A stretch of 56,408 bases of DNA, taken from positions 1-56,408 of the forward strand of contig PFOR01000013.1 in NCBI GenBank assembly GCA_002792635.1, given 5' to 3'. Shown one piece after another: positions 11,316 to 51,055 of this stretch. The DNA comes from Candidatus Pacearchaeota archaeon CG_4_10_14_0_2_um_filter_35_33 (GTDB taxonomy: Archaea > Nanobdellota > Nanobdellia > Pacearchaeales > GW2011-AR1). Under the pieces are notes generated by a model that saw only the letters and a list, made by a program, of their open reading frames with translations, did no database searches and was not told the origin of the DNA. The translations under genes were made by a program, and so were the position numbers. Within the stretch, counting starts at the first letter, position 1. Each line of letters opens with the position of its first letter.

Positions 11316-13646
11316 ATGAAATTACACAAGGGTTTTATAGTTTCCATTTCAACAAAAACCAATTATGATTCTACTTACATCCAGTTATTTGGAAAGCTCG
11401 AAAATGGAAAATCCTTCTCATCAATTCACCCATATACCCCTTATTTTTTCATACAAGAGTCCAACCTAAAAAAAGCATCCATTTTACTAAAAAAATTCAA
11501 ATCAGAAAAAACAGAATTAACAAACTTCCAAGGGAAAAAAGTAGTAAAAATAATTTCCGAAAAACATCTTGATTTAGCAAAACTCTCTCACGCTTTACAT
11601 AAAAAGGATATTGAGACTTATGAGGCAGACTTAAATCCAACAATCAAATTCATAATAGATAATAATCTTCTAGGCTCAATAGAAATATCTGGAGAATCAG
11701 AACCGACAGAAAGAGTAGACCTATTTTTTGAGAATCCTGAAATAAAACCCTCAACGTATAAACCTGAACTAAAAATAGCTTCCATAGATATAGAAACAGA
11801 CAAAAAACAAAATTCACTATATTGTATTGGGATACACTCAAAAAATTATAAGAAAAACTTTATCGTTTCAAAAGAAAAGCTACCTAATGCCATTTCTTGC
11901 AAAACAGAAGAAGAATGCTTATCAAAATTCAAAGAAGAATTAATTTCACTAGATCCAGATATAATAACTGGATGGCACGTAATCGATTTCGACTTAGCTT
12001 TCCTTAAAAAGAAATTTGAAGAACACAAGATTCCTTTTGATATTGGAAGAACAAATGAATCTGCAAGAATCAAAATAGAATCCAATTTCTTCCGTTCTTC
12101 TTCAGCATCGGTTCCAGGGAGGCAAGTGCTAGATGGATTAAACCTAATTAGGGACCCTTTTATAAAAGAAGCTCCTTCAATAAAAACCAAGAACTTTGAA
12201 TCATATACTCTAGAGAATGTTTCAAGAGAAATATTAGGTGATGGAAAAATAATAAAAGGAAAAGCAAGACATCAGGAAATAGAAAAACTTTATCAAAAAA
12301 ATCAAAAAAAATTGGTTGAATATAATCTGAAAGATTGCGAGCTTGCATATAAAATTCTAGAAAAAACAAAAATAATTGATTTAGCAATAGAAAGAACCCA
12401 TCTAACAGGATTGCCATTCAATAGGCTAACAGCATCAATAGCTGCGTTTGATTCATTGTATATCAGACAAGCAAGAAAAGCAGGACTCGTATCTCCAACT
12501 TCTCATTATAAAGAAAGAACTGAGAGAATAACAGGAGGATACGTCATGGAATCCAAACCTGGAATCTATCACAATGTATTAGTTCTAGATTTTAAATCCC
12601 TATATCCATCAATAATAAAAACATTTAACATAGATCCCTCATCACTATTAGAAAGAAAAACCCCTGGATCAATAGAGACTCCAAACAAAGCATATTTCAT
12701 AAATCAAACAGGCATTTTACCTAAAATAATAGAAACACTCCATACTGCTAGAGAGAAAGCAAAAAAAGAAAACCGAGAATTGTCATCTTATGCTATAAAA
12801 ATAATTATGAACTCCTTCTTCGGAGTTCTTGCAAATCCAAACTGCAGATATTATTCTCTAAAAATGGGAAATGCAATAACTCATTTTGCCCAATTTATCA
12901 TAAAACTTACAGCAAAGAAAATTGAAGAATCTGGATATAAAGTCATATACTCAGACACAGACTCTGTATTTGTAGACACAGGTTTAGGAAAAGAAAAAGC
13001 AAATCAGCTTGGAAAACAAATCCAGGATTATATAAATAAATTCTTTAAAAAATACGTAGAAGAAAACTACCGCAGAGATTCCTATTTAGAACTGGAATTT
13101 GAAAAACAATACCTCTCATTCCTAATACCCAAAGTTAGAGGCTCGGAATCTGGTTCTAAAAAAAGATATGCTGGGCTAATAGAAAAATCAGGCAAAGAGG
13201 AAATACAAGTCATCGGTCTTGAAGCTATAAGGGGAGACTGGACAGAAGTAGCAAAAGAATTCCAATTAAAATTACTAGATAAAATCTTTCATAAAGAAGA
13301 GTTTGTTAGTTTCATAAGAAAATATGTAAGGGATATCAAATCTGGAAAATTTGACGAAAAACTAGTATATAGAAAGTCTATAAGAAAAGCCTTAGATTCT
13401 TACACAAAAACAACGCCTCCTCATGTTAAAGCTGCAAGAAAACTGGATTCTTTAGATTCAAACATAATAGAATATTATATAACAACAAAAGGCCCGGAGC
13501 CAATACAGAAATTAAAAAATAAAATAGATTACAAACATTACATAGATAAACAGATTAAACCTATCGCAAACACAATCCTATTCTTCTTTGAAAAAGATTT
13601 TGAAGAAATCTTAGAATCCACAAAGCAGATGAAGTTATTCCATTAA
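11316..13646 (+). CDS. polB: Family-B DNA polymerase, E. coli Pol II-like
   Basis: SIDIET (Exo I), ITGWHVIDFDLAFL (Exo II), DFKSLYPSII (motif A), KIIMNSFFGVL (motif B), YSDTDSVFV (motif C), GSKKRYAGL, PPHVKAAR. Confidence 0.95.
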   Translation: MKLHKGFIVSISTKTNYDSTYIQLFGKLENGKSFSSIHPYTPYFFIQESNLKKASILLKKFKSEKTELTNFQGKKVVKIISEKHLDLAKLSHALHKKDIETYEADLNPTIKFIIDNNLLGSIEISGESEPTERVDLFFENPEIKPSTYKPELKIASIDIETDKKQNSLYCIGIHSKNYKKNFIVSKEKLPNAISCKTEEECLSKFKEELISLDPDIITGWHVIDFDLAFLKKKFEEHKIPFDIGRTNESARIKIESNFFRSSSASVPGRQVLDGLNLIRDPFIKEAPSIKTKNFESYTLENVSREILGDGKIIKGKARHQEIEKLYQKNQKKLVEYNLKDCELAYKILEKTKIIDLAIERTHLTGLPFNRLTASIAAFDSLYIRQARKAGLVSPTSHYKERTERITGGYVMESKPGIYHNVLVLDFKSLYPSIIKTFNIDPSSLLERKTPGSIETPNKAYFINQTGILPKIIETLHTAREKAKKENRELSSYAIKIIMNSFFGVLANPNCRYYSLKMGNAITHFAQFIIKLTAKKIEESGYKVIYSDTDSVFVDTGLGKEKANQLGKQIQDYINKFFKKYVEENYRRDSYLELEFEKQYLSFLIPKVRGSESGSKKRYAGLIEKSGKEEIQVIGLEAIRGDWTEVAKEFQLKLLDKIFHKEEFVSFIRKYVRDIKSGKFDEKLVYRKSIRKALDSYTKTTPPHVKAARKLDSLDSNIIEYYITTKGPEPIQKLKNKIDYKHYIDKQIKPIANTILFFFEKDFEEILESTKQMKLFH

Positions 13647-14891
13647 CTCTTTCTTTTCCCTATTCTTTTTATATAAGTAATAAGCCAATAATCCTGCAAT
13701 AATCAGCAATATTATTGCAATGGATATCAATAAGGCTCTGTACCAAAGACTAGCAGGAGAAAGCCTGAATGCATTGCTTGAACTAGCCTTCTTATCATTA
13801 TAACTTAATTCCACGTAAAAGAGGTATCTGCCATAATCTAATTCTTTTGGAATCTCAAACTCTCTATCGAGAGACAAAAATCCATTAACTTGTAAATTCT
13901 CACTACCTAAAAAGAATGAATTATCCTCAAAATCCTTAATGAAATAACTAGTATTTACTACAACAGGACCTTGGTTAGAAATATCCGTCATGTTGATATT
14001 AGCAAAAATCTTATCATTCTTCAATAAGATACTAGAATCTAATTCGGAATTAACATCAAAAAGAATTCCTGAATCTAAAACATTAATGATGAGATTAACC
14101 GTTCTCGAAACAGTTCCCGCCTTAAAAGTCACACCTCCTGTATTTATGCCTGGCTGTTGTGAAGAAGGAATATCAAAAATTATATCGAAGGCCCTCTCTG
14201 AACCCGAATCCAGATTGAAGTTGATAGGAGTCACACTAAAGAGATTTGTAGAACCAACAAAGGAAGAACTAATAGCCAAACCAACATCTCCGGTATTCTT
14301 CACCACAAGAGTTTGAGTTAATTCCTGTCCCTGTTTCAAATCGACATCAATCAAATCCCTTGAAACAGTAAAGTTAGCTAACCCTCCATCCCCTCCTCCT
14401 CCGCTCCCACCACCAGAATCACATGCTACTAAAGTCAAATCAATATTCCATTCAACACTAGCTAAATCAAAACCATCAGAAATCTCTACCTTAACTTTTC
14501 TATCTCCTTTAACACCACACCCAAAATTAAAATCGAATTCATCAAATCCACTTCCTAAAAACCCTGTAGTCTTCTTAATATCATTACCGTCGACAAACCA
14601 TTTCACATTCAAAAAATCGCCATCCACATCTTCGAAAGTAACATTAAAGTACAAGTCATCAGTACCCAAAGCATTCAAGGATAAATCACCCGGATTATGT
14701 TCTGTTATAACAGGAGCATTATTATCCTCAACGTTAACAGTTGCGTCAATAGGAGAAAGTCTTTCCCCAGGACTGAACATCATATCACTAGTTTTAGGAA
14801 CTGAAACTAGAACCAGGCTTAATAAAACCAAAACTCCCAATAAAGATATAACTGCAAATAATATATTCTCCTCCCTCATCATCAAGAACAA
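13635..14891 (-). CDS. Surface protein: signal anchor, cadherin/PKD-like module, Gly linker, CARDB-like module, C-terminal TM
   Basis: NAPVITEH..VTFEDVDGDFLNVKW, SGGGSGGGGDGG, VKNTGDVGL, C-terminal ALLISIAIILLIIAGLLAYYLYKK. Last gene of the operon. Confidence 0.6.
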   Translation of the reverse strand: MFLMMREENILFAVISLLGVLVLLSLVLVSVPKTSDMMFSPGERLSPIDATVNVEDNNAPVITEHNPGDLSLNALGTDDLYFNVTFEDVDGDFLNVKWFVDGNDIKKTTGFLGSGFDEFDFNFGCGVKGDRKVKVEISDGFDLASVEWNIDLTLVACDSGGGSGGGGDGGLANFTVSRDLIDVDLKQGQELTQTLVVKNTGDVGLAISSSFVGSTNLFSVTPINFNLDSGSERAFDIIFDIPSSQQPGINTGGVTFKAGTVSRTVNLIINVLDSGILFDVNSELDSSILLKNDKIFANINMTDISNQGPVVVNTSYFIKDFEDNSFFLGSENLQVNGFLSLDREFEIPKELDYGRYLFYVELSYNDKKASSSNAFRLSPASLWYRALLISIAIILLIIAGLLAYYLYKKNREKKELME

Positions 14892-14903
14892 TATACAAAT
14901 TAT

Positions 14904-15527
14904 TTAAACATTCCTTTCTGCAATAGGTGGCTGGCGCAAACTTTCAAAAGCTAAATTAGATCTCCTTCTCCTAACATATACAAAAATAATCAGAATCAAC
15001 ACAACAATCATCAGAGAAATAATCAAATAGGCCAAATTGAAGAAAGTATCTATAGACTCCAATTCACTTTCCTTGCCAACTTCAGCATCGCCCCCCTTCC
15101 TATTAATGCCTATATCCTTTAAACTTTCTCCAGTCAAAACAAAAAAAGAGGTTACATAACTAGGAGAAAGCTGAACTTTTCCTTCCTCTCCAGAATCTAA
15201 AGAATCAGATAATATTTTAACCTCATACTCTGCCTCTGCATTCACCGGAACTTTAATTTCTATCGGGACCATCACAATATCTCCTGTCTTTAATTCAAAT
15301 ATTGTATCTCCCAAAAATCTGGCTATTTCTCGTCCTTCCAAAAAGCTAAGCTCAACTCTACTAGTATCCACAGATGGATTAGTTAATCTCACTTCAAACT
15401 CTTTAATACTGCCAGGTTCAACAACTAAGGGATTATTCTGATTATAAGGACTACTAAAAGAAAAAGATGAGGAGACTAAGCCAATACAAAAAACAAAAAT
15501 AACAAACCACATAAAAATCTTGTTCAT
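14904..15527 (-). CDS. Surface protein with signal peptide and C-terminal TM anchor
   Basis: MNKIFMWFVIFVFCIGLVSS.., Ig/CARDB-like PLVVEPGSIKEFEVRLTNPS, C-terminal LIISLMIVVLILIIFVYVRRRR. Confidence 0.55.
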   Translation of the reverse strand: MNKIFMWFVIFVFCIGLVSSSFSFSSPYNQNNPLVVEPGSIKEFEVRLTNPSVDTSRVELSFLEGREIARFLGDTIFELKTGDIVMVPIEIKVPVNAEAEYEVKILSDSLDSGEEGKVQLSPSYVTSFFVLTGESLKDIGINRKGGDAEVGKESELESIDTFFNLAYLIISLMIVVLILIIFVYVRRRRSNLAFESLRQPPIAERNV

Positions 15528-15557
15528 CTTAATCTAAAATAAATGAACATTAAAAAC

Positions 15558-16070
15558 TTACCTCTTCTTCTTCATAGAAGACAAAACTAACCATATAATC
15601 AAAATCAATACTATAATCCCTATCACCCACCACCAAACACTACTTCCAGCATCAGTCTCATTAGTCGTAACAGTTTGATTATCATCGGGCTGAGCAAGAA
15701 CTTCCATTTCCCAAGAAAGCCTTACACCAGGACTCAATGCAACAGTCTCTCCACCAGCACCCTCTGTACTAACCTTCATAGAAACACTAGCTGTTGAACC
15801 AACAGGTGGAACACTATTCAATTTAGCAGGCACTTTCTTAAATCCACCTGCTTCTATAACATAACTCGTACCCTGTGGAAACGAAACACCCTCATAATCG
15901 CTAATCACAAAACTAGCTGTATCTCCTGGATTCTGTATAGTAACAATAAAATTACCATCTGGATAAACAACCTGTGAATGAGCCACTCCAAACGCACTAA
16001 CAGACCCTGCTAGAGCTACAATAAATCCAAACAGCATCAAAAACTTAATTTCTTTCATCATTTTAAACAA
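15558..16070 (-). CDS. Small surface protein with signal peptide and C-terminal TM anchor
   Basis: FLMLFGFIVALAGSVSAFG signal; C-terminal WWWVIGIIVLILIIWLVLSSMKKKR. Confidence 0.55.
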   Translation of the reverse strand: MFKMMKEIKFLMLFGFIVALAGSVSAFGVAHSQVVYPDGNFIVTIQNPGDTASFVISDYEGVSFPQGTSYVIEAGGFKKVPAKLNSVPPVGSTASVSMKVSTEGAGGETVALSPGVRLSWEMEVLAQPDDNQTVTTNETDAGSSVWWWVIGIIVLILIIWLVLSSMKKKR

Positions 16071-17106
16071 CCAAATCTACCTCCCATTGTGTTCCACCCG
16101 AAGTACTATAAGATGGCGAACTAAATATAAGTCCCGTAGTATCTAACCGCTGCCATATGCAGAAGAACATCTCTTCACCCGGATTAGCCGGAGGGCTTCC
16201 AGCACCATAAGCTAAACTAATGCCTGAGATAATTGAAGGTGAACTATCATTTAATGCAGGACTTGCACAAGAACCACTATTAGAACCCCCGACAGTATCT
16301 CCTGCGCTGAAAGCATCAGCGGGCAAATTATCACCTGTACTATCAGTTGGAGGTAAATCGTAAGCAGTAACTTCCGCCGAACTAAAATCTACATTGCCTT
16401 GGTTAACAAAACCAACAGGACCATCGGCAGCCTGGTCTTCAACATCTAAACTTATAGAAGCCCACCCAACAGCAGGGTCATAGCCAAAAGCGGACAACTC
16501 CTGATAAAGAAAATTAATAGCAGATGAATTAGATTGGTTAGAGGCATCCGCTACTTGAACAGTCAACTCCCAGTTTACTGCAGGTTCATAATAATAGTGC
16601 ATAGGTATAGTACACAAATACTCAACAGTATTAGCATTTTGAGTGTTAGCAGTACAATTACCATCAGAGTAATAATAAGTCGGAGCATAATCATTCCCAG
16701 GATTCCTTAAAGAAACATACAAGTTACAGGTTCCCAGTCCAAATCCGGTCTCATTAGAACATTCAATAATTGCCTTACTTCCACCAGGCAAATCATTAAC
16801 ACCATTGTTATCTTCAACTTTAGCTGAAATCTCAACATTGTTTGCTCCATTAATCACAGGTGTAACATCATTAGTTGTATTGTATATCTTATCTCTAACT
16901 TCAGAAGCAGTGATAGTCGGTGCAGCATTCTGAACATTAACATCCACATTAACTGGAGATTCCCTAGGACTATCAAACGGCCAAATTGCACTACCAACTG
17001 AAATAAACATCACAACAAAAACCAAACCCAAAACAAAATTCTTTTTCACCATTTTCTCCATACTCTGAAAACTTCCACATTTATAAACATTTTTATTCTC
17101 TATCAT
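16063..17106 (-). CDS. Secreted/anchored surface protein with cadherin-like module
   Basis: Signal anchor FVLGLVFVVMFISVGSA. NAAPTITASEV..VEDNNGVNDLPGG module. 4-nt overlap with the upstream giant gene. Confidence 0.55.
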   Translation of the reverse strand: MIENKNVYKCGSFQSMEKMVKKNFVLGLVFVVMFISVGSAIWPFDSPRESPVNVDVNVQNAAPTITASEVRDKIYNTTNDVTPVINGANNVEISAKVEDNNGVNDLPGGSKAIIECSNETGFGLGTCNLYVSLRNPGNDYAPTYYYSDGNCTANTQNANTVEYLCTIPMHYYYEPAVNWELTVQVADASNQSNSSAINFLYQELSAFGYDPAVGWASISLDVEDQAADGPVGFVNQGNVDFSSAEVTAYDLPPTDSTGDNLPADAFSAGDTVGGSNSGSCASPALNDSSPSIISGISLAYGAGSPPANPGEEMFFCIWQRLDTTGLIFSSPSYSTSGGTQWEVDLVV

Positions 17107-20100
17107 TTTACTTTTTTCTTAGCTCTTGAATACAATGTCCAAACATTCCTATTATCTTTTCCTATCAATTCGGCAATCTCTAAATTACCCATATCTTTCC
17201 TAAGATAATAAACAATAGCTTCCAAGATGCTAAGCCCACTATTAAACACATTAACCGGAATCACCATACCCTCTGTAACCACAAGTCTTCCTTTTTTCTT
17301 CTTTAAAGCATTATTATAATTGTTCCAAACAGTCCTCTGATCCCTTCCAATTGTTTCAGCAATTTCACTAAACTTCATCCCTTCATTTTCTTTCAAATAC
17401 TTACATAATACCTCGGCAGGACCCAACTTATTATCCCTGAATATAGATAATGGAATACGGATTTCCATCTTCCTCACCTTATTAGAAACTAATTTATCTC
17501 TAAGCAATTCCAACAACTCATCACTCGATAAATTCCCTGCCAAATCCCTCAACTCATTTCTCCTCTTCAAAGAAAGAGGTAATCCAAACATCGTTGCCCA
17601 TCCAATAATCAAAGCAAACAAGATTTCCCAAGCACCAGAATAACTTCCAGTAGACAATCCTGTTGGCACCTCCTCAGCACAATAATCCAATACTTCCTGC
17701 GAATTCTCCCCCCTCGGCAAAACAGCATTAGGAATAGTAACTGGATTCCCATCAACAAGCCTAAATTCATTACATATCAAATCATCAGCATTAACACTAA
17801 ATTTATCAGAAATTATTTGATTTATTCCATTACTTAATGGGTTCCCTGTAACAGTTATAGAGGTGAAATCCTTATTTCCCAAATTCAGAATTATAAGATT
17901 ATCATCCGCGGGAATATCAGTCCCTCCCGGGACTAATCCAGACCATACAATTGAAAACGGTTCGTTAACATACTGAGACTCCCACAAATTAAATTCGTTA
18001 TTATCTCTCTTCGAGTTCTGCTGACTCAGGCTGTCTGTAGCCCTGGCACCCACATCCCATAATCCTGGCTCATCATAATACTGAATCCCAACAACACAAT
18101 CAAACTCAGCAGTAGTTGGATTAATTATCGTCCCTTTAGCACAATCCAAGTCATCTCTTGTTAGAGGATCACTAGGAGGGAAGAAACTTGTTTCAACTAA
18201 AGTTATGTCCCCATGTCCATCGGGATCTGAAACAGTTATCGTTGCGAGAACATTAGAAATGTCTCCTTCTACAATAAGTTGATCAGGGTCAACATAAATA
18301 TTTTGAATTGTGGGTGGCTGATTAACGGCTCCTGCTTCTCCTATGTAATAATAGCTAAACCCTGTAACGTTAAACTTGACAGTTTCTGCATTCAAATTGG
18401 TAAATGCTGTGCATTCATTTCCACAATCTAAACCATCCCTCCTAATTGCAGGGTCCACAAAGTTACCAGGCATGTTTCTAAATGTTATATTCGCCTCTTT
18501 ATTCAATGCGCCTAGCTCGGGAACAATATTAACATAAGCATAATTATAACTAACCTCTGTATTTGAATCGAGATTTCCGAATCTTGGATCCAAAGAATCT
18601 GTAGCATTCCATTCTATAGAGCCCCCTTGATAAGAACTGTTAATCAAACTTAATGCAAACTTAATACCATAATGAACGCCAAAATCTTCAAATCCTTTTG
18701 AATAGTTTATAGAAATCCTTCCGGTATCCCCATCAGCACCTGTAATTTGTCCCCTTCCTTCCTTAACACTTATGTGAACTCCCTTCATGTCTACAAAATC
18801 ATTTTCGAAATATATGTTTCCTCCGTCTCCAGGCGATTGCTCAAAGGTAGCTGCACTCCCACCATGTAAATTTGCATTAGAAGTAACATTAGAATTAAAT
18901 AAGAACAAGCTACCTCCGTGTACTCCTGTGCCTTGTCCACTTCCACCTCCTGTATTTCCGTAAAGCAAAACGTCTTCTACTTCAGAATTATACATAGTTA
19001 CATTGGGTCTCGACCTTGGGGTACTTCCCAAAGCTTCTATAGAACTTCCAAAATTAGTAACTCTCGTATTCTTAAGAGTGAAATTCTTAACATCAGCCCT
19101 TGTAAGGTTTATCCCCACACTATCCGGTGCTCCATCACCTGTGATAACAAAACCATTTCCATTCAAAGAAATATCATTAGCATTAACTTGTATACAAACT
19201 TCAGACCCTGACACGTCAGATGACAAAACATATTCTTTCCCTGCTTGATTTAAAATAGCACAAGTTGAAATTCCAGATTCATCAACAGAAAAATCAACAC
19301 TTTCTGTATTATTAATCAATCCAGAATTATCTCCCGTATAAAATAGAATTGTGTAGTCTCCAGTATTAAGAGTGTCCAAATCGTAATTGAAATTAATTCC
19401 ATCTGTAGTAGACATTGTAAAGTTTGTAGCCCAATTATCAAGGGTAAAGTTAACACTTCCAACACCTTCATCCAAACTTACCGTAACTGGAATTGGAAAT
19501 TCATTGGCATTATAAATTCTTGATTCAGGAGATGTAATATCAACGTCAGGAGGGCTATCTCCAATAACTGTAACCTCATCAACAACGCACCTCTCCCCTC
19601 CACCACTATTATCAATGATACATTCGAACGTAACTGTCATCTGGTTCGTGAAAGAGAGTTGATTTTGAAGTTTTCCAAATTTAGCATATCCAAGAGTAGA
19701 GCCCGGAGGAATACTTTGATCAACACTATCAGCAAAAATGCTACTTAATATGACTGGCACATCAACTCCGTTATCTAAATGAACAACCATTCCCTCACCA
19801 ACATCAACCTTGTAAAGTTTGTAACTAAGAGACAAATTTGCTGTGCTAAAACCGGATAAATCGAAAGTCTCGCTAAGGTTAAATGAACATGGCCCATTAA
19901 GACATTCAAACCCGGGATTGCTCGCACATGTTCCAGAAAAAGCCCCCCCAGGCAAATCCCAGGAACCAAAAGGAACATTCTGCCAGTTTCCAAGACTGTT
20001 ACAAGATTCGTACATAACTGTTTCAGCAGGGGCAAAAGAAATCTCCTCTTGTCCAAAAAAGTTCATACCCATCAACAACAGACCAAACAAAAGCAAAATA

Positions 20101-20402
20101 ACAGCTGACAAAACAAACTTCTTATTGACGACAAATCCAGGTTTCTTCTTAGAATAAAAATCCAAATATTTCTGATAGACATCTATTGTTTTATCGTAAT
20201 AGTTCATCCATTCACTTAATTTCCTTCCATCCAAACCTTTATCCAACAACTGCTTGTAAGTTTCCTCATTTAAATGCCCGGATTCATGTTGAGCAATCAA
20301 ATCTTCAACAAATCCTCTCTTTCTCTTCTTGGCAGCCTCAGCCTCGTTAATTTTTTCGTTTATCTCATTAATCCTTCTATTAATCTCTTCCATGCTTGCC
20401 AT
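17103..20402 (-). CDS. Giant two-TM surface protein: cytoplasmic coiled coil, TM, lectin-like + Ig-like + right-handed beta-helix ectodomain, TM, two cytoplasmic HTH modules
   Basis: TM1 FVLSAVILLLFGLLLMGMNFF. NosD/beta-helix-like CIQVNANDISLNGNGFVITG..GINL. TM2 AWEILFALIIGWATMFGLPLSL. Tail repeats ..FSEIAETIGRDQRTVWNNYNNALKK and ..LEIAELIGKDNRNVWTLYSRAKKK. Confidence 0.7.
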   Translation of the reverse strand: MASMEEINRRINEINEKINEAEAAKKRKRGFVEDLIAQHESGHLNEETYKQLLDKGLDGRKLSEWMNYYDKTIDVYQKYLDFYSKKKPGFVVNKKFVLSAVILLLFGLLLMGMNFFGQEEISFAPAETVMYESCNSLGNWQNVPFGSWDLPGGAFSGTCASNPGFECLNGPCSFNLSETFDLSGFSTANLSLSYKLYKVDVGEGMVVHLDNGVDVPVILSSIFADSVDQSIPPGSTLGYAKFGKLQNQLSFTNQMTVTFECIIDNSGGGERCVVDEVTVIGDSPPDVDITSPESRIYNANEFPIPVTVSLDEGVGSVNFTLDNWATNFTMSTTDGINFNYDLDTLNTGDYTILFYTGDNSGLINNTESVDFSVDESGISTCAILNQAGKEYVLSSDVSGSEVCIQVNANDISLNGNGFVITGDGAPDSVGINLTRADVKNFTLKNTRVTNFGSSIEALGSTPRSRPNVTMYNSEVEDVLLYGNTGGGSGQGTGVHGGSLFLFNSNVTSNANLHGGSAATFEQSPGDGGNIYFENDFVDMKGVHISVKEGRGQITGADGDTGRISINYSKGFEDFGVHYGIKFALSLINSSYQGGSIEWNATDSLDPRFGNLDSNTEVSYNYAYVNIVPELGALNKEANITFRNMPGNFVDPAIRRDGLDCGNECTAFTNLNAETVKFNVTGFSYYYIGEAGAVNQPPTIQNIYVDPDQLIVEGDISNVLATITVSDPDGHGDITLVETSFFPPSDPLTRDDLDCAKGTIINPTTAEFDCVVGIQYYDEPGLWDVGARATDSLSQQNSKRDNNEFNLWESQYVNEPFSIVWSGLVPGGTDIPADDNLIILNLGNKDFTSITVTGNPLSNGINQIISDKFSVNADDLICNEFRLVDGNPVTIPNAVLPRGENSQEVLDYCAEEVPTGLSTGSYSGAWEILFALIIGWATMFGLPLSLKRRNELRDLAGNLSSDELLELLRDKLVSNKVRKMEIRIPLSIFRDNKLGPAEVLCKYLKENEGMKFSEIAETIGRDQRTVWNNYNNALKKKKGRLVVTEGMVIPVNVFNSGLSILEAIVYYLRKDMGNLEIAELIGKDNRNVWTLYSRAKKKVK

Positions 20403-20429
20403 AATAATTACTTAAAGTGTGTTAAAATA

Positions 20430-20446
20430 GATATATAAACCTTTCC
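20430..20446 (-). promoter_or_regulatory. BRE/TATA-like promoter of the surface operon
   Basis: Minus-strand ggaaaggtttatatatc, about 33 nt upstream of ATG 20402. Confidence 0.45.
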
Positions 20447-20471
20447 AAATTAAGTATTTTATACCTATTTT

Positions 20472-20620
20472 GTATTAATAAAGAACTTAATATGTGTTAT
20501 TTAAACTTAATATGTGTTATTTAAACTTAATATGTGTTATTTAAACTTAATATGTGTTATTTAAACTTAATATGTGTTATTTAAACTTAATATGTGTTAA
20601 TAAAGAACTTAGTATGTATT
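20472..20620. repeat. Perfect 20-bp tandem repeat array (acttaatatgtgttatttaa x5 plus a 15-nt partial) with related flanking half-units
   Basis: Units at 20485, 20505, 20525, 20545, 20565, partial at 20585. Flanks gtattaataaagaacttaatatgt and gtgttaataaagaacttagtatgt. Confidence 0.95.
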
Positions 20621-20686
20621 ACATATCATTCAAAAATATAAGCTAAAGACTAAAAAATTTTACTTAACTTGTATTAAGTAACAGAA

Positions 20687-20917
20687 TTATTCCCGGTAGT
20701 CTGCATCAATTGTTTCTGTCGTTTCAACTCTATCCATAAAAGAACCCTCATCTGTTAGATTTACCAAATGCATTCCTCTTCTAGCAAGACCCATTTCCGA
20801 AGGATCTCTTCTAGCTTCACTCAAAAACAAACCAGGAACTCTCCCTGTTAACTCTTGTGCTTTAACGGCTGTGTCATACACAACGTCAGTTTTAGGTTCA
20901 GTATATCCATTTTCCAT
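20687..20917 (-). CDS. Hypothetical small acidic protein
   Basis: ORF with a locally higher GC look; no motif recognised. Confidence 0.4.
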   Translation of the reverse strand: MENGYTEPKTDVVYDTAVKAQELTGRVPGLFLSEARRDPSEMGLARRGMHLVNLTDEGSFMDRVETTETIDADYRE

Positions 20918-21042: not shown

Positions 21043-21231
21043 ATGGAAAACAAAGAAATAATAAGCCTTAGAAAAGATGTAAATAATCTGAAAGAAGTAG
21101 TTGAAAATCTGACTATTTTAATGAATAGAAGACTGATAAGCGAATTAAAGGAAGAGGCAGATAATATAGAAGCAGGGAAATTTTTAACTGAAGAAGAATT
21201 TGAGAAGAAACATAAGGTTAAAATTCAGTAA
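21043..21231 (+). CDS. Small coiled-coil protein with antitoxin-like C-terminus
   Basis: TATA-like aactataaatatt about 25 nt upstream. C-terminal NIEAGKFLTEEEFEKKH resembles addiction-module component tails. Its 3' end overlaps the relE-like gene by 14 nt, convergently. Confidence 0.45.
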   Translation: MENKEIISLRKDVNNLKEVVENLTILMNRRLISELKEEADNIEAGKFLTEEEFEKKHKVKIQ

Positions 21232-21514
21232 TGTCTTTTGAATAGCCTCTTCTAATATAATCATCACACTCATCTTTGTGTTTTACAGATAAAATCCAGA
21301 TTTCCTTAGCATTTTCCTGAACAATGTAAAACACCCTATAAACCTCTGCCTTAAATTCCCATAAAGTTGGCTTCGTATGTGACAAAGGCTTTCCAACACT
21401 TTCAGGATTTTCTTTTAGGCGAGTCAACTTTTTGATAATTTGTGATGATATTGACTTATCAATCTTCTCAAACTCTTTATCGAACTTCTTTCCAAACTTG
21501 AGAATAAAAAGCAT
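21218..21514 (-). CDS. RelE/ParE-family toxin
   Basis: About 98 aa. KKFDKEFEKIDKSISSQIIKKLTRLKENP..GKPL..LWEFKAEVYRVFYIVQENAKEIWILSVKHKDE is the typical RelE/ParE layout. Confidence 0.7.
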   Translation of the reverse strand: MLFILKFGKKFDKEFEKIDKSISSQIIKKLTRLKENPESVGKPLSHTKPTLWEFKAEVYRVFYIVQENAKEIWILSVKHKDECDDYIRRGYSKDITEF

Positions 21515-47944: not shown

Positions 47945-50900
47945 TTAATTTTTCAATTTGATGTGTCTTTTCTCGTGGTGGATGTTATGTCTAGTCTTAT
48001 AATGGTATTTTCTAATAAGCTTCAAAACAAAAACAACAGAACCTAAAATAAGAACTATCAATCCAAACAAAGACAAGGATCTTAAATTACTATCCGAAAT
48101 CGCGAATCCTGCAAGTCCTGATTCGCTCAGCAAAACTGCTCTTTCCAAAACAATACTTTCATCCCCATTAGATGCTTCTAAAACTAGGCTAAATTCGCCA
48201 AACGCATCCTTAGGAAGCGGAACTTCAAAGCCAAATTCCTGTTCTAAACCACCGTTAAGATAAACATTTTCAACACCAGAGCCTACCTCAATTCCACTGG
48301 GGTTGTACAACTGATAAGAAATCTCAATACCTTGTCCTTCATCTACAAAACTTATCAAATTCGTAGTAACATCTAATTCAGTTCCCTTTCTGACAGCACT
48401 CAAAAATTCAAAATTAAAATCAGAAGGTGTTACAACAATGTTAAATCCTGCAAATGCCGTAACCTCTGTGCAAGCCACCCTCAAATTAGATTCATACTCT
48501 CCAGGTTCTGCATTTAATGGAATATTTACATCAAATAAAAAATTAACAGACTGTCCCGAAGCAAGAGATTCAATCTGATCCGATTCAATCCATGAACTAA
48601 TTTCGCCTAAGCCCGTTACTTCACAATCATTCAAAAACCTCTGTCCGGTATTCAAAACAAAAAGACCTACTTGCTGAGACTCCCCTCTCTTCAGGCTAAC
48701 TGAATCAACACCACCAATATCCAATCCTGCATTTCCCTCAAGTCCCGGATTTCCTCCACCCCCGCCTCCACCACCTCCACCTCCACCCCCACTTCCAGAA
48801 CCTGCTGAAACTGTAAATCTACTTGTCTTAGATTCGCTATTTCCTGCTGAATCTTCTCCAGTTACTTCAATATTATAAGTTCCTGTAACCAAAACATTTA
48901 TCGTTGTGTTTGTGCACCCCGAAATAACACCCACGGTAACTTCCACACCGTTGCTTGCTAAAGTAACATTATAAGTGCATAAAACAGGGCTTAAGTTATC
49001 ACTAACATTAACTGTAACTGGAATATTGGGCGTGCTTGTATAAGTTCCCGTAGGCTCTTCTATCGTAATATTTGGAGGAGTAACATCAGAAACCAAACTC
49101 CTATTCCCTGTCCAAACAACACTTCCATCGTCACAAGAAATGGCCCAACTATAATTTCCTTCTGCCAGTTCCAGATTAAAACTATTTTCCTGACCAGATA
49201 TGGCTCCAGAGTCAGTTTGGTTCAAAGAATAAGTCCCATTAAAATCACCATGCAAACTACATGAGCTCAAGCTCCCAGATTCGGGAATGTAAACAAAGTC
49301 TACCGAACTAACATTGGTATAATTATTCTGCTTAGGATATAAAAGATGGATTCCTAAATTGCCTGAATCAACAAAGAACATCAAATTATCAACATCTTCC
49401 AATCCTTCAACACTTTCATTTACATAAACTTTCAAATCATAAACTCCGTCTCCTCCAACACTCAGACTGCTATTAGCACATCCAGGCAGAGTATTATTTG
49501 TTCCACCATCTAGGGAGTACCCGCATGAATCAACACTACCTTGAACAGAAAAATTCAAATCAATAGTGGTTAAATTATAAACAGATGCATAACTTGGATA
49601 AACAACACTAACATTTGGTTGAACTGCTACCTGGGAAGGAAATTCAACATTGAACACAACACTGCTTGAATTTTCATTTCCGGCACTATCATTAATCCAT
49701 GCCTGCCAAGTATTGCTTCCCTCATCTGCCATCAGGCTTGCGTTTTCTCCACAGATAAGGCTGGTGTTTGTTGTTCCCCCATCAACACTATACCAACAGC
49801 TATCTGGATTAATTTCTGTAAATGTGTAATTCAAATCAATAGAAGTATAATTATAACTAATATTCAAAGGATTTGTAATGTTTATCTCAGGATAGATGCT
49901 ATCAACAAAGAATGTAACACTGCTTGAATTTTCATTTCCGGCACTATCATTAATCCATGCCTGCCAAGTATTGCTTCCCTCATCTGCCATCAGGCTTGCG
50001 TTTTCTCCACAGATAAGGCTGGTGTTTGTTGTTCCCCCATCAACACTATACCAACAGCTATCTGGATTAATTTCTGTAAATGTGTAATTCAAATCAATAG
50101 AAGTATAATTATAACTAATATTCAAAGGATTTGTAATGTTTATCTCAGGATAGATGCTATCAACAAAGAATGTAACACTGCTTGAATTTTCATTTCCTGA
50201 TGTGTCATTTGCCCATACTATCCATGTGCTACTTCCTTCCTCCGAATCCAGGCTAGTAACATTATCTCCGCATGTTATGGATGTATTTGTTGTTCCAGAA
50301 TCTACTGAATACCAACAACTATCCAAGGCAGTCTCATCACTAGCCGAATAATTTAATTCTGTCTGCACAGAATTATAACTTGTATTGGCTGGATATACAA
50401 GCTCAACCAAAGGAAGAGTTGTATCTGAAACAGTAGCATCGCCCGTAATTATAATGTTATCAATAGCACAATAATCGGCACTCGTAAGAGGAGATTCAAC
50501 CCTTATGCCTGCACCAGACAAAAGCCCATGCATTGTAATATTATAAGAATAAGGATCATAATCATCATCCTCATTAGTTAAATTCAACAATTGAACATCA
50601 TCAGTCCCATTAGTGTAATAATAATAACAATATTCATCAGATTCAAGAGATTGTGCAGTTGCAAAAAAACTAAGGTTAACAAAACTGTATCCACTGCTAT
50701 CAAAACCTCTTGTTGCAACACATGCTGAATCCCCCCTCATATGATAATTTCCTATCGATCCACCCAATCCAGTAATTTTACATCCACCAGAAAAAGCCCA
50801 TGCTCCATCCCAACCAGAACCACAATTATTAGCACCACATTCAAAATCATCCGCTGCAATCTGTACAGCAGATACTGCAGAAACAAGAAACATAAATATA

Positions 50901-51055
50901 AACAACACAATAACCATCTTTCCTCCCTTGCTTAAAATTTCTTTCATAACTAATTCTATTTTCTTTGAAAAAATGGTGGCATTATCTTTGCAGTATTTCT
51001 GAAAAGCTTTGTAAACCTTAGAATCAATACTAAGAGTCACCTTCTTTTTCGCCAT
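47945..51055 (-). CDS. Giant two-TM surface protein with N-terminal RHH-like module, lectin-like domain, Ig-like repeats, poly-Gly linker, CARDB-like region, C-terminal TM and His/Lys tail
   Basis: MAKKKVTLSIDSKVYKAFQKYCKDNATIFSKKIELVMKEIL, then MVIVLFIFMFLVSAVSA. Repeated ..CWYSVDGGTTNTS.. modules, G13 linker, C-terminal LFGLIVLILGSVVFVL. Confidence 0.7.
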   Translation of the reverse strand: MAKKKVTLSIDSKVYKAFQKYCKDNATIFSKKIELVMKEILSKGGKMVIVLFIFMFLVSAVSAVQIAADDFECGANNCGSGWDGAWAFSGGCKITGLGGSIGNYHMRGDSACVATRGFDSSGYSFVNLSFFATAQSLESDEYCYYYYTNGTDDVQLLNLTNEDDDYDPYSYNITMHGLLSGAGIRVESPLTSADYCAIDNIIITGDATVSDTTLPLVELVYPANTSYNSVQTELNYSASDETALDSCWYSVDSGTTNTSITCGDNVTSLDSEEGSSTWIVWANDTSGNENSSSVTFFVDSIYPEINITNPLNISYNYTSIDLNYTFTEINPDSCWYSVDGGTTNTSLICGENASLMADEGSNTWQAWINDSAGNENSSSVTFFVDSIYPEINITNPLNISYNYTSIDLNYTFTEINPDSCWYSVDGGTTNTSLICGENASLMADEGSNTWQAWINDSAGNENSSSVVFNVEFPSQVAVQPNVSVVYPSYASVYNLTTIDLNFSVQGSVDSCGYSLDGGTNNTLPGCANSSLSVGGDGVYDLKVYVNESVEGLEDVDNLMFFVDSGNLGIHLLYPKQNNYTNVSSVDFVYIPESGSLSSCSLHGDFNGTYSLNQTDSGAISGQENSFNLELAEGNYSWAISCDDGSVVWTGNRSLVSDVTPPNITIEEPTGTYTSTPNIPVTVNVSDNLSPVLCTYNVTLASNGVEVTVGVISGCTNTTINVLVTGTYNIEVTGEDSAGNSESKTSRFTVSAGSGSGGGGGGGGGGGGGNPGLEGNAGLDIGGVDSVSLKRGESQQVGLFVLNTGQRFLNDCEVTGLGEISSWIESDQIESLASGQSVNFLFDVNIPLNAEPGEYESNLRVACTEVTAFAGFNIVVTPSDFNFEFLSAVRKGTELDVTTNLISFVDEGQGIEISYQLYNPSGIEVGSGVENVYLNGGLEQEFGFEVPLPKDAFGEFSLVLEASNGDESIVLERAVLLSESGLAGFAISDSNLRSLSLFGLIVLILGSVVFVLKLIRKYHYKTRHNIHHEKRHIKLKN
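49661..50196. repeat. Perfect 258-nt tandem duplication (2.07 copies) inside the giant gene; a third diverged copy follows
   Basis: actgcttgaattttcatttcc.. recurs at 49661, 49919 and 50177. Encodes an identical 86-aa Ig-like module twice. Confidence 0.95.

Follow-up and report, generated by a model that had tools for sequence, protein, structure and literature searches.

We found that a 1099-residue predicted membrane-anchored surface protein of a DPANN archaeon (Candidatus Pacearchaeota archaeon CG_4_10_14_0_2_um_filter_35_33) ends in two predicted cytoplasmic helix-turn-helix (HTH) modules and belongs to a large, apparently undescribed family. Its most likely role, inferred from sequence alone, is to bind a conserved, repeated DNA motif in its own promoter, which would link the cell-surface machinery directly to its own gene expression. 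The window analysed here is the whole 56,408-nt stretch of contig PFOR01000013.1, and the coordinates of all features are collected in Table 1. A preliminary description of this sequence had noted two hydrophobic spans and a tail with two HTH-like repeats, and this observation is confirmed. Its interpretation as a surface-to-transcription relay that plausibly senses host contact is only partly supported.

Table 1 Features of the giant surface-protein gene and its surroundings (window coordinates).
Position (strand)	Feature	Residues	Supporting observations
17103..20402 (-)	Gene for the giant surface protein, stop codon included	1-1099	Identical protein on at least 24 public contigs
20118..20402 (-)	N-terminal cytoplasmic domain; three helices with a conserved G-x-I...EY...L...EW-x-YYD-x-Y signature	1-95	Conserved in full-length homologs; pLDDT about 90 in the full-length model; no significant Pfam or PDB match
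20052..20117 (-)	TM1	96-117	Kyte-Doolittle (KD) peak 2.4, K/R on the N side; same position in 17 homolog loci
17631..20051 (-)	Ectodomain; acidic, Cys- and sequon-bearing, beta-rich; N-terminal two thirds vary between relatives	118-924	Composition and full-length model; sub-threshold Big_7 hit at aa 285-352
17631..18335 (-)	Conserved membrane-proximal ecto-module (beta-sandwiches); always travels with TM2 and the HTHs in relatives	690-924	Part of the best matched stretch in most of the top 150 representatives; pLDDT about 88
17568..17630 (-)	TM2 (WEILFALIIGWATMFGLPLSL)	925-945	KD peak 2.04; W-x-I, a hydrophobic stretch of ~16 aa and a polybasic stretch in 93 of 102 family representatives
17463..17567 (-)	Polybasic stop-transfer stretch (KRRNELR) and two-helix linker	946-980	Charge pattern; structural model of the tail
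17292..17456 (-)	HTH repeat 1; recognition helix RDQRTVWNNYNNALKK (17298..17345)	983-1037	Profile, model, superposition and repeat identity
17106..17261 (-)	HTH repeat 2; recognition helix KDNRNVWTLYSRAKKK (17112..17159)	1048-1099	Profile, model, superposition and repeat identity
20484..20599 (-)	Perfect 20-bp x5.8 tandem array, each unit carrying the family motif in gene orientation (AACACATATTAAGTT); candidate distal operator array		4 to >=7 copies in other assemblies that encode the identical protein
20606..20675 (-)	Two imperfect upstream motif copies: AATACATACTAAGTT (20606-20620) and AATACAAGTTAAGTA (20661-20675)		Motif search
20450..20456 (-)	Inverted half-site TACTTAA just upstream of the BRE/TATA		Same element, co-varying with the motif, in 9 homolog promoters
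20431..20441 (-)	BRE/TATA-like box GGTTTATATAT, starting 37-39 nt before the ATG; predicts a leaderless or very short-leader mRNA		Inferred from the archaeal promoter consensus
20409..20423 (-)	Proximal, degenerate motif copy AACACACTTTAAGTA between the TATA box and the ATG		3 mismatches to the unit; equivalent proximal copies at -11 to -34 in homolog loci
13635..17106 (-)	Four downstream, overlapping or closely abutting genes for small anchored surface proteins (347, 170, 207 and 418 aa); probably co-transcribed		Homologs of the 347-, 207- and 418-aa products directly downstream of the giant gene in many homolog loci

Predicted topology and fold of the tail

To assess the topology, we calculated hydropathy in Kyte-Doolittle windows of 19 aa and examined the charge distribution around the two peaks. 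K/R residues flank the predicted cytoplasmic sides (KKKPGFVVNKK before TM1 and KRRNELR after TM2), whereas the ecto flanks are acidic. The segment aa 118-922 has a net charge of -72 with 14 Cys and 14 N-x-S/T sequons, while the N-terminal 95 aa and the tail are net positive, with 0 and 1 Cys, respectively. This composition fits an N-in/C-in arrangement, although TM2 is short and only moderately hydrophobic in many relatives (KD 1.0-1.6), and the predicted topology rests on hydropathy, the positive-inside rule, composition and family conservation.

The preliminary description had made an HTH fold in profile or structure searches a condition for its reading. The tail (aa 946-1099) corresponds exactly to 17106..17567, and its two repeats are 42% identical (BLASTP E 3e-11). 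The Pfam profile Sigma70_r4_2 (PF08281) scores 41.7 bits on the tail and 34.7 bits on the whole protein against a cut-off of 25.7, with two matched stretches. An AlphaFold2 model of the tail built with a 29-sequence alignment reached a mean pLDDT of 90.5 and a pTM of 0.73 and shows two copies of a short strand plus helices. Using Foldseek, we obtained local superpositions below 1.5 Å on SigF, SigR and sigma-A region 4. One repeat superposes on solved sigma region 4 domains, with 8jzt at 0.8 Å over 45 columns and 5fgm at 1.4 Å over 46 (both probability 1.00), and 1rio was matched at 2.2 Å over 50 columns, the probabilities ranging from 0.97 to 1.00, although the global E-values are weak (>=0.05) because the domain is short. 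The LuxR-type alternative, which had also been suggested, found no profile support, since GerE (PF00196) is not among the Pfam hits at E<=1 and SdiA, EvgA and RcsB appear as structural neighbours only at weak E-values.

The proposed lectin/beta-helix nature of the ectodomain is only weakly supported. Pfam gave a single sub-threshold hit (Big_7), the full-length model is beta-rich but of low confidence over most of the ectodomain, and Foldseek returned only generic Ig-like hits, while database names for relatives are LamG-like or NosD.

A large family of DPANN surface proteins

An exhaustive phmmer search yielded 2565 hits at E<=1e-3 and 176 cluster representatives at E<=1e-30, most of which are DPANN proteins of 1,000-4,800 aa that end in the same module of last ectodomain, W-x-I span, polybasic stretch and 2xHTH. 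Most of the top 150 representatives align query aa ~690-1099 to their own C-terminus, and the full-length orthologs are P0031 (42% identity) and P0032 (39%). Among 44 related genomic loci, about 29 carry the 2xHTH at the end of ORFs of 1084 to >2800 aa, with TM1 at aa ~90-125. The window protein and its locus have every feature by which we propose to define the family: the conserved N-terminal cytoplasmic domain and TM1, the C-terminal ecto-module, the W-x-I span, the polybasic stretch, two HTHs, motif copies bracketing the promoter, and downstream genes for small surface proteins.

These data refute an assembly or frameshift fusion of a surface-protein gene with a neighbouring regulator gene. 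The identical 1099-aa ORF is present on at least 24 independent contigs from several samples, and the same C-terminal architecture recurs in more than 90 cluster representatives and about 29 genomic loci. Split arrangements do exist in relatives, but there the HTH gene lies upstream of the giant gene rather than downstream.

We also considered whether the HTH pair is additionally, or mainly, made as a separate soluble protein of ~121 aa from an internal start at Met979, in which case the locus would behave like the split operons and the tether would be incidental. An SD-like AAGGTGAGGAAG lies immediately before the internal ATG at 17466-17468, this genome uses SD-like sequences at 11 of 51 genes against a 9% background, and stand-alone homologs are of similar size. 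However, the internal Met is not conserved in relatives, and an SD-like 4-mer is expected by chance in about 9% of such positions. The only separate 134-aa call in the database starts mid-helix and comes from contigs of <=1.8 kb, so it is a truncated record. TM2, the polybasic stretch and the linker are conserved together with the HTHs, which argues that the fusion itself is under selection. We regard this alternative as very doubtful.

A promoter motif associated with the giant genes

A 15-bp motif (CATACATATTAAGTA) brackets the TATA box of these genes in about 14 of 17 genomes, and in the window it is amplified into the 20-bp x6 array. With up to one mismatch, the core ACATATTAAGT occurs 8 times in the window, 7 of them in this promoter, against 2.0 expected from shuffles. 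In 534 kb of homolog loci, 24 of the 39 hits (<=1 mismatch) lie within 350 nt upstream of giant ORFs, always on the gene strand and typically as two copies 53-55 nt apart around a TATA box. We additionally scanned metagenomes without bias for the exact 16-mer. The five promoter-like hits (a TATA box and, in four of them, a second copy 42-54 nt away) all precede membrane-anchored ORFs, of which one exceeds 2210 aa and three are cut by the contig end. The promoter, TATA and transcription start-site assignments are predictions from consensus only.

In relatives, we further observed split versions of the fused architecture. Nine stand-alone 2xHTH genes of 150-190 aa, plus three more with uncertain start codons, overlap or abut the start of a surface-protein gene on the same strand. 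Eleven of these downstream ORFs are giant (>=1070 aa, several cut by the contig end), and the remaining one, at locus L034, is 180 aa. Most of the nine genes with assigned starts sit behind arrays of 4-6 direct repeats of a related motif that end at a TATA box, while locus L042 shows none. Since the related loci were retrieved with patterns taken from the HTH itself, the ratio of fused to split forms is biased.

The motif also varies together with the HTH1 recognition helix. The four loci in which this helix reads RDRRTI[S/G] have the motif end TAAG[A/C]N, whereas the window and 12 other loci with R[DN][QED]RT.. have TAAGT[A/T] (locus L008 has no detectable motif). The association (Fisher about 4e-4) rests on four variant loci and is not corrected for phylogeny, although the four loci fall in at least two places in a tail dendrogram. 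The inverted half-site changes in step (TACTTAA, GTCTTAA, GCTTAA).

A membrane-tethered autoregulator as the favoured hypothesis

Taken together, we favour, with moderate confidence, a membrane-tethered autoregulator of a probable five-gene surface operon. In this reading, the protein belongs to a large family specific to DPANN archaea (MAGs labelled Pacearchaeota, Woesearchaeota or Nanoarchaeota) of two-pass giant surface proteins with one shared layout: a helical cytoplasmic N-terminus of ~95 aa, TM1, a variable ectodomain, the membrane-proximal module, TM2 with a polybasic stretch, a helical linker, and two ECF-sigma-region-4-like HTHs in the cytoplasm. The tail would most likely act as a tandem bipartite reader of the asymmetric ~15-bp motif, of which the window has six perfect 20-bp units plus two imperfect ones upstream, an inverted half-site next to the BRE, and one degenerate copy between the TATA box and the start codon. 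Occupancy of the latter site should repress, while the distal array could recruit or concentrate tails, or activate. Archaeal transcription, translation and membrane insertion are coupled, so the nascent protein is held near its own gene, which makes cis-autoregulation by a tethered tail physically plausible. Our analysis establishes the HTH fold and family membership, the conservation of the architecture, the motif and its specificity to these promoters, the pairing of split and fused genes, and the co-variation. That the tail binds DNA at all and is what reads the motif, that it controls transcription from the membrane, the direction of regulation, and any input from the ectodomain are inferences.

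It remains possible, though unlikely, that a different regulator binds the repeats and that the tail acts otherwise on nucleic acid or protein at the membrane, for example by tethering chromosomal or incoming DNA to the surface complex or by recruiting a partner. The 20-bp array resembles iteron- or centromere-like repeats, split-type giant proteins end in K/R-rich cytoplasmic tails of ~120-150 aa that could bind nucleic acid non-specifically, and other DPANN giant surface proteins carry cytoplasmic domains with non-regulatory roles, such as a VirB4-like ATPase (PMC10266531). Against this, the motif copies are placed precisely around the TATA box and start codon in many genomes, which is regulatory rather than centromere-like positioning, and their concentration at this promoter within the window, the co-variation with the recognition helix, and the HTH genes preceding giant genes in split operons likewise count against this reading.

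The signal relay of the preliminary description, in which the ectodomain senses host contact or another external cue and the signal passes across the two TM helices or releases the tail by regulated proteolysis, would refine rather than exclude our hypothesis, but we consider it only a tentative possibility. The claim that the tail is a tandem sigma-r4/ECF-type HTH on the cytoplasmic side of a second hydrophobic span is supported, and the transcription-factor role proposed for it is now backed by the motif, the split forms and the co-variation. Host-contact sensing, by contrast, is pure inference, as nothing in our data shows that the ectodomain modulates the tail. In favour of a relay, the architecture is that of one-component transmembrane regulators (PMC10269533), the membrane-proximal ecto-module, TM2 and the tail are conserved as one block, and a conserved cytoplasmic N-terminal domain sits on the same side as the tail. 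TM2 often contains helix-destabilising Pro (26 of 93) or Gly (63 of 93) residues, which in SREBP- and RseA-type substrates favour intramembrane cleavage, but for this family these residues are merely suggestive. However, no ligand-binding or sensor domain was identified in the strongly variable ectodomain, no protease gene lies in the operon, and no anti-sigma-like signal was found in the N-terminal domain. In the split forms the HTH protein is soluble, so tethering is not required for function.

A more speculative and unlikely version, which would be of great interest if true, is an archaeal Notch-like or 'receipt'-type pathway. Here the conserved Y-S-T..G-x-W-x-I motif, the short TM2 and the polybasic stretch would form a processing signal, either sortase-like or for intramembrane proteolysis. 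Cleavage on surface maturation or host engagement would free the tandem HTH to bind the polymorphic operator array and reset expression of the surface operon, so that each installed or engaged giant adhesin would report itself to its own promoter, with the copy number of the 20-bp operator tuning the set-point.

DPANN archaea are mostly uncultivated, their biology is thought to depend on huge, fast-evolving surface proteins that mediate attachment to hosts, and almost nothing is known about how these genes are controlled. The present analysis provides a defined protein family, a defined cis-element with lineage-specific variants, and a natural split/fused pair that ties the two together. This yields a concrete candidate pair of trans-factor and operator that is accessible in vitro without cultivating the organism, and a candidate example of a structural surface protein that carries its own transcription regulator. 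If the tether matters, it would extend membrane-bound transcription control in archaea well beyond ArnR and offer a simple explanation for how cells with tiny genomes and few regulators dose very costly surface proteins. The polymorphic number of operator units among populations with identical proteins suggests a fast-evolving expression dial.

Comparison with known systems

The preliminary description was not aware of a characterised archaeal example of such a protein, but membrane-bound archaeal regulators are already known. ArnR and ArnR1 of Sulfolobus acidocaldarius are characterised membrane-bound regulators (PMC6396743), and Demey et al. 2023 (PMC10269533) predict 1,384 transmembrane transcription regulators in 367 of 404 archaeal species. 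What appears undescribed is this particular family and its cis-element.

With two hydrophobic spans and a PF08281 domain, the protein satisfies the operational definition of that census (a TM region plus a DNA-binding domain in one protein), which does not denote a homologous family. As in ToxR/TcpP, CadC and the wider class of bacterial transmembrane transcription regulators, one polypeptide combines an extracytoplasmic part, membrane span(s) and a cytoplasmic predicted DNA-binding domain that would act on promoters from the membrane. In contrast to these, the HTHs are C-terminal, tandem and of the sigma-r4/ECF type rather than an N-terminal winged helix, two spans place both ends inside the cell, the ectodomain of 800 to >4000 aa looks like a structural surface protein rather than a small sensor, and the likely target is its own operon. 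The family is archaeal (DPANN), and neither DPANN, Nanoarchaeota nor sigma is mentioned in the main text of the census.

ArnR and ArnR1 are likewise archaeal, membrane-bound one-component regulators that bind promoters of cell-surface structures (archaellum and pili genes). ArnR has an N-terminal HTH, a HAMP-like region and two C-terminal TM helices with essentially no ectodomain, whereas here the HTHs are C-terminal, after TM2. The tail's matches are to sigma-70 region 4, and no sequence relationship to ArnR was detected in these searches, which did not include a direct comparison. ArnR regulates other genes rather than being the structural protein itself.

Each repeat matches the profile and fold of ECF sigma region 4.2, and the recognition helix ..NVWTLYSRAKKK resembles ..TVKSRLHRARKKL. 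However, sigma region 2 is absent from the Pfam hits and TIGR02937 scores only 19.2-25.5 bits against a cut-off of 42.9, matching only model positions 117-160. The protein is therefore not a sigma factor, and archaea do not use sigma factors. The layout of a cytoplasmic helical N-domain, a TM and an extracytoplasmic part resembles class I anti-sigma factors (RseA-type), but the N-terminal domain shows no similarity to an anti-sigma domain: a profile of 29 N-terminal domains searched against PDB gave a best E of 0.013 (CdvA coiled coil), and Pfam gave only weak PAH, TAFH and SHOCT-like hits.

In eukaryotic membrane-tethered transcription factors with large ectodomains (Notch, SREBP, ATF6), a large extracytoplasmic part is likewise covalently linked to a cytoplasmic or nuclear-acting transcription module through a TM helix that often carries helix-breaking residues. 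There is no homology, those factors act only after proteolytic release, and in a prokaryotic cell without a nuclear barrier release would not necessarily be required. Finally, the 'SPEARE' proteins of Nanohaloarchaeota (PMC10266531) are also very large, strain-variable, membrane-anchored DPANN surface proteins that are rich in Ig-like, LamG or beta-helix domains and carry a functional cytoplasmic domain. They come from a different DPANN lineage, and their cytoplasmic part is a VirB4/TraG-like ATPase, read as part of a secretion apparatus, whereas here it is a predicted tandem HTH tied to a promoter motif.

Two predicted HTH modules at the C-terminus of a 1099-residue surface protein

The preliminary description, which placed two HTH modules at the end of a giant surface protein, proved correct: the segment that it singled out corresponds exactly to the last 154 codons of a 1099-codon ORF. 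Kyte-Doolittle windows give two hydrophobic spans, at aa 96-117 (2.4) and aa 925-945 (2.04). Judged from hydropathy, charge and composition alone, the flanks follow the positive-inside rule for an N-in/C-in protein, with KKKPGFVVNKK preceding TM1, KRRNELR following TM2 and acidic flanks on the ectodomain side. The composition agrees, as aa 118-922 carry a net charge of -72, 14 Cys and 14 N-x-S/T sequons, whereas the N-terminal 95 aa and the tail are net positive, with 0 and 1 Cys, respectively. The two repeats in the tail are 42% identical (E 3e-11), and Pfam Sigma70_r4_2 scores above its curated cut-off with two matched stretches (41.7 bits on the tail, cut-off 25.7). NCBIfam hits are confined to the region-4 end of ECF sigma models and lie below their cut-offs, and a phmmer search of the tail against PDB sequences gave only chance-level hits (E>=0.038). 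AlphaFold2 with a 29-sequence alignment predicts the tail with a pLDDT of 90.5 and two copies of a short strand followed by helices. Foldseek places single repeats of this model on solved sigma region 4 domains at 0.8-2.2 A, although global E-values are weak because the domain has only about 45 residues.

Table. Coordinates of the features discussed, in the window unless a related locus is named.
Feature	Location	Strand
Gene for the 1099-aa giant surface protein	17103..20402	-
C-terminal tail with two HTH repeats	17106..17567	-
SD-like sequence and in-frame ATG (Met979)	17466..17480	
Inverted half-site TACTTAA	20450-20456	
Perfect 20-bp x5.8 array	20484..20599	
76-aa acidic ORF	20687..20917	-
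62-aa ORF	21043..21231	+
ParE/RelE-type toxin gene	21218..21514	-
Gene for the 347-aa product	16063..17106	-
Overlap of the last surface-operon gene with the DNA polymerase gene	13635..13646	
Family B DNA polymerase gene	11316..13646	+
Gene for a second large surface-type protein (1036 aa)	47945..51055	-
Giant protein of the split type, locus L028	8020..13266	
Giant protein of the split type, locus L032	8386..13779	
Giant protein of the split type, locus L036	8363..13897	
Long leader, locus L001	~370-620	

A family of giant surface proteins

A word-indexed homology search with the full-length protein found only the protein itself, and a search with the N-terminal 140 aa found nothing. A search with the tail found 28 relatives, most of which are soluble 145-190-aa proteins made of the same two repeats, while two are short-contig fragments showing ectodomain, TM, polybasic stretch and both HTHs. 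The alignment of 29 sequences contained no stretch conserved enough for a scan of related loci, and we therefore scanned one genome per species with an alignment of 6 close sequences. This returned 44 loci (L numbers here and below denote related loci and assemblies), all but three of which come from MAGs labelled Pacearchaeota, Woesearchaeota, Nanoarchaeota/Nanoarchaeia or simply 'archaeon'; the three exceptions (L032, L042, L043) are labelled uncultured Methanosarcinales. In about 29 of these loci the repeats end an ORF of 1084 to >2800 aa in which TM1 lies at aa ~90-125, the ~95-aa N-terminal domain is clearly conserved (G-x-I...EY...L...EW-x-YYD-x-Y), and the HTHs are preceded by a conserved Y-S-T..G-x-W-x-I motif, a hydrophobic stretch and RRKRKKK.

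The extent of the family became visible only in an exhaustive phmmer search of 1.84 billion representatives, which gave 2565 hits at E<=1e-3 and 176 at E<=1e-30. Most of the top 150 are 1,000-4,800-aa proteins in which query aa ~690-1099 aligns to their very C-terminus. The conserved unit is therefore the last ~230 aa of ectodomain, TM2, the linker and the tandem HTH, and 93 of 102 representatives have the hydrophobic-plus-polybasic signature 55-90 residues before HTH1. One relative, P0033 (a 1252-aa JGI metagenome protein), carries four HTH repeats at its C-terminus as a tandem duplication of the whole pair, and several other representatives show three HTH-like matches. Source databases call these proteins hypothetical, LamG-like or NosD-domain proteins.

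The rest of the ectodomain is variable. In the full-length AlphaFold2 model (pLDDT 64) it is beta-rich but mostly of low confidence, and Foldseek returned only generic Ig-like matches, which neither support nor exclude a specific lectin; the preliminary description had labelled the ectodomain lectin/beta-helix. The idea that the N-terminal domain is an anti-sigma domain that sequesters the HTHs gained no sequence support, and this domain has no detectable relatives.

A motif shared by the promoters of the family

Upstream of the ATG lie three elements, namely a BRE/TATA-like GGTTTATATAT starting 37-39 nt before it, the perfect 20-bp array, and imperfect copies further up. Lining up the upstream regions of 17 full-length homologs from different MAGs shows the same 15-bp asymmetric motif in about 14 of them, with the consensus CATACATATTAAGTA. 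The motif is always on the gene strand and usually occurs as two copies 53-55 nt apart, one upstream of a TTTATAA box and the other between that box and the ATG, often running into the ATG itself. Its core (<=1 mismatch) occurs 8 times in the 56-kb window, 7 of them here, against 2.0 expected, and in 534 kb of homolog loci 24 of the 39 hits (<=1 mismatch) lie within 350 nt upstream of the giant ORFs. An inverted half-site (TACTTAA) lies next to the BRE in nine homolog promoters, and also in this one.

We additionally scanned metagenome contigs for the exact 16-mer, which returned mostly isolated chance hits in unrelated DNA, and no wider regulon emerged. Only the five hits in a promoter-like context (a TATA box, and in four of them a second copy 42-54 nt away) were informative: all precede membrane-anchored ORFs, two of which hit the N-terminal-domain HMM at 1e-18 and 2e-27, and one of which exceeds 2210 aa. 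The upstream 20-bp array pointed out in the preliminary description is thus a local amplification of a family-wide, promoter-specific element. A CRISPR-like array was rejected because the units are contiguous without spacers, and a general promoter element because the motif is absent from other promoters in the window.

In the largest paralogs, the motif pair and TATA box lie 100-350 nt upstream of the ATG (leaders of L001, L044, L113, L053 and L008). The long leader contains complementary GTGTGTGAGA(C/T) and (A/G)TCTCACACAC segments, plus GC-rich hairpins followed by T runs just before the ATG, and looks like an attenuator or anti-terminator. Rfam found nothing in the window region or in three homolog leaders (L113, L045 and L053).

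Split and fused forms

Nine stand-alone tandem-HTH genes, plus three more with uncertain start codons, overlap or abut the start of a surface-protein gene on the same strand. Eleven of these downstream ORFs are giant (>=1070 aa, several cut by the contig end), while the remaining one, in L034, is 180 aa, with a >1520-aa ORF about 3.4 kb further downstream. Most of the nine with assigned starts are preceded by arrays of 4-6 direct repeats of a related motif (for example ATACATA-ACAGTA or ACAAAAGAAGTA), spaced about 20-22 nt apart and ending at a TATA box; L042 shows no such array. The same two components, a tandem HTH and a giant surface protein, therefore occur either as adjacent co-oriented genes or as one polypeptide, behind the same kind of repeat array, which is the strongest argument that the HTH pair is the dedicated regulator of the giant-protein operon. 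Giant proteins of the split type in L028, L032 and L036 end in a TM helix followed by a ~120-150-aa, extremely K/R-rich, low-complexity cytoplasmic tail, which could bind nucleic acid or the soluble tandem-HTH protein.

Co-variation of recognition helix and motif

Four loci whose HTH1 recognition helix reads RDRRTI[S/G] have the motif 3' ends TAAGAC, TAAGCT or TAAGCG. In contrast, the window and 12 other loci with R[DN][QED]RT[VIL][WAG] have TAAGT[A/T], with L008 showing no detectable motif in the short upstream stretch available. The four variant loci fall in at least two places in a dendrogram of the tails. The inverted half-site changes in step, from TACTTAA to GTCTTAA in L017 and GCTTAA in L020. 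This suggests, without correction for phylogeny, that HTH1 reads the TAAGTA half. L017 and L020, with the recognition helix RDRRTIS, use a clearly different motif variant (TAAGACAA or TAAGC), and L017 has 3.5 tandem ~21-bp units upstream, so array formation at the distal site is not unique to the window.

Operon, neighbouring genes and population data

The four genes downstream (347, 170, 207 and 418 aa) overlap or closely abut, and all have signal or anchor features. Homologs of three of them follow the giant gene in many loci. The 347-aa product of the next gene is a paralog of the giant protein's conserved C-terminal ecto-module, and its tblastn hits fall both inside and downstream of the giant ORFs in many loci. 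The last gene of the surface operon (minus strand) converges with the family B DNA polymerase gene and overlaps it by 12 nt, and there is therefore no room for a terminator between them. On the other side, a 76-aa acidic ORF directly upstream of the repeat array is called as a gene in public records but has no Pfam match and no homolog in the 44 related loci. About 800 nt upstream of the giant gene lies a ParE/RelE-type toxin gene (PF05016, E 4.9e-9), whose 3' end is overlapped convergently by a 62-aa ORF with no family match; neither has an obvious partner in the usual co-oriented arrangement. The second large surface-type protein in the window (1036 aa; Big_13 and NPCBM-associated hits) has no HTH tail and no copy of the promoter motif.

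The identical 1099-aa protein is present on 24+ contigs from several samples, which, together with the recurrence of the architecture across the family, refutes an assembly fusion. The number of 20-bp units differs among these assemblies (L165-L174), with 4, 5, 6, 7 and >=7 compared with the array of the window. Several contigs end, or have N gaps, inside the array, and L165 also lacks the ~37 nt between the array and the BRE. This is either real population polymorphism or assembly instability.

Proposed mechanism

The best-supported reading, which we hold with moderate confidence, is a membrane-tethered tandem HTH that binds the motif copies around its own promoter and autoregulates a five-gene surface operon. 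A site between the TATA box and the start codon (here the proximal site, AACACACTTTAAGTA) is a repressing position in archaeal regulators, whereas the distal array could activate or act as a sink. Coupled transcription, translation and membrane insertion would keep the gene next to the nascent protein. While the family, the promoter motif and the two gene arrangements were observed in the sequences, DNA binding by the tail, the sign of regulation and any role of the ectodomain or the N-terminal domain are inferred and not shown.

The surface-to-transcription relay suggested in the preliminary description is supported only in part: a true external-signal relay, with or without proteolytic release, appears unlikely as a separate explanation, although it is largely a refinement of the reading preferred here. 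It is also possible, but doubtful, that the tail has another nucleic-acid or protein role while a different factor reads the motif. A separately translated soluble tail is very unlikely. An SD-like AAGGTGAGGAAG lies immediately upstream of the in-frame ATG of Met979, four codons before HTH1, and could provide an internal start for a soluble 121-aa tandem-HTH protein, but this Met is not conserved in relatives.

Comparison with known regulators

Literature searches on DPANN with Sigma70_r4, on giant proteins with HTH and on surface proteins with autoregulation found no description of this family, its motif or the split and fused pairing. The value of the finding lies less in the single protein than in the testable, putative regulator-operator system that it reveals for the surface proteins of uncultivated DPANN archaea. 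Membrane-bound one-component regulators as such are an established class in bacteria, are characterised in archaea, where ArnR and ArnR1 are examples (PMC6396743), and are predicted to be common there, with 1,384 in 367 of 404 archaeal species (PMC10269533). The preliminary description, which was not aware of a characterised archaeal example, therefore overstated the novelty on this point. The present protein differs from known transmembrane regulators in that its predicted DNA-binding domain is a tandem of the sigma-r4 type and lies at the C-terminus, its ectodomain is giant and looks structural, its likely target is its own gene, and its host is a DPANN archaeon. It is not a sigma factor, because there is no region 2 and full-length sigma models score below their cut-offs.
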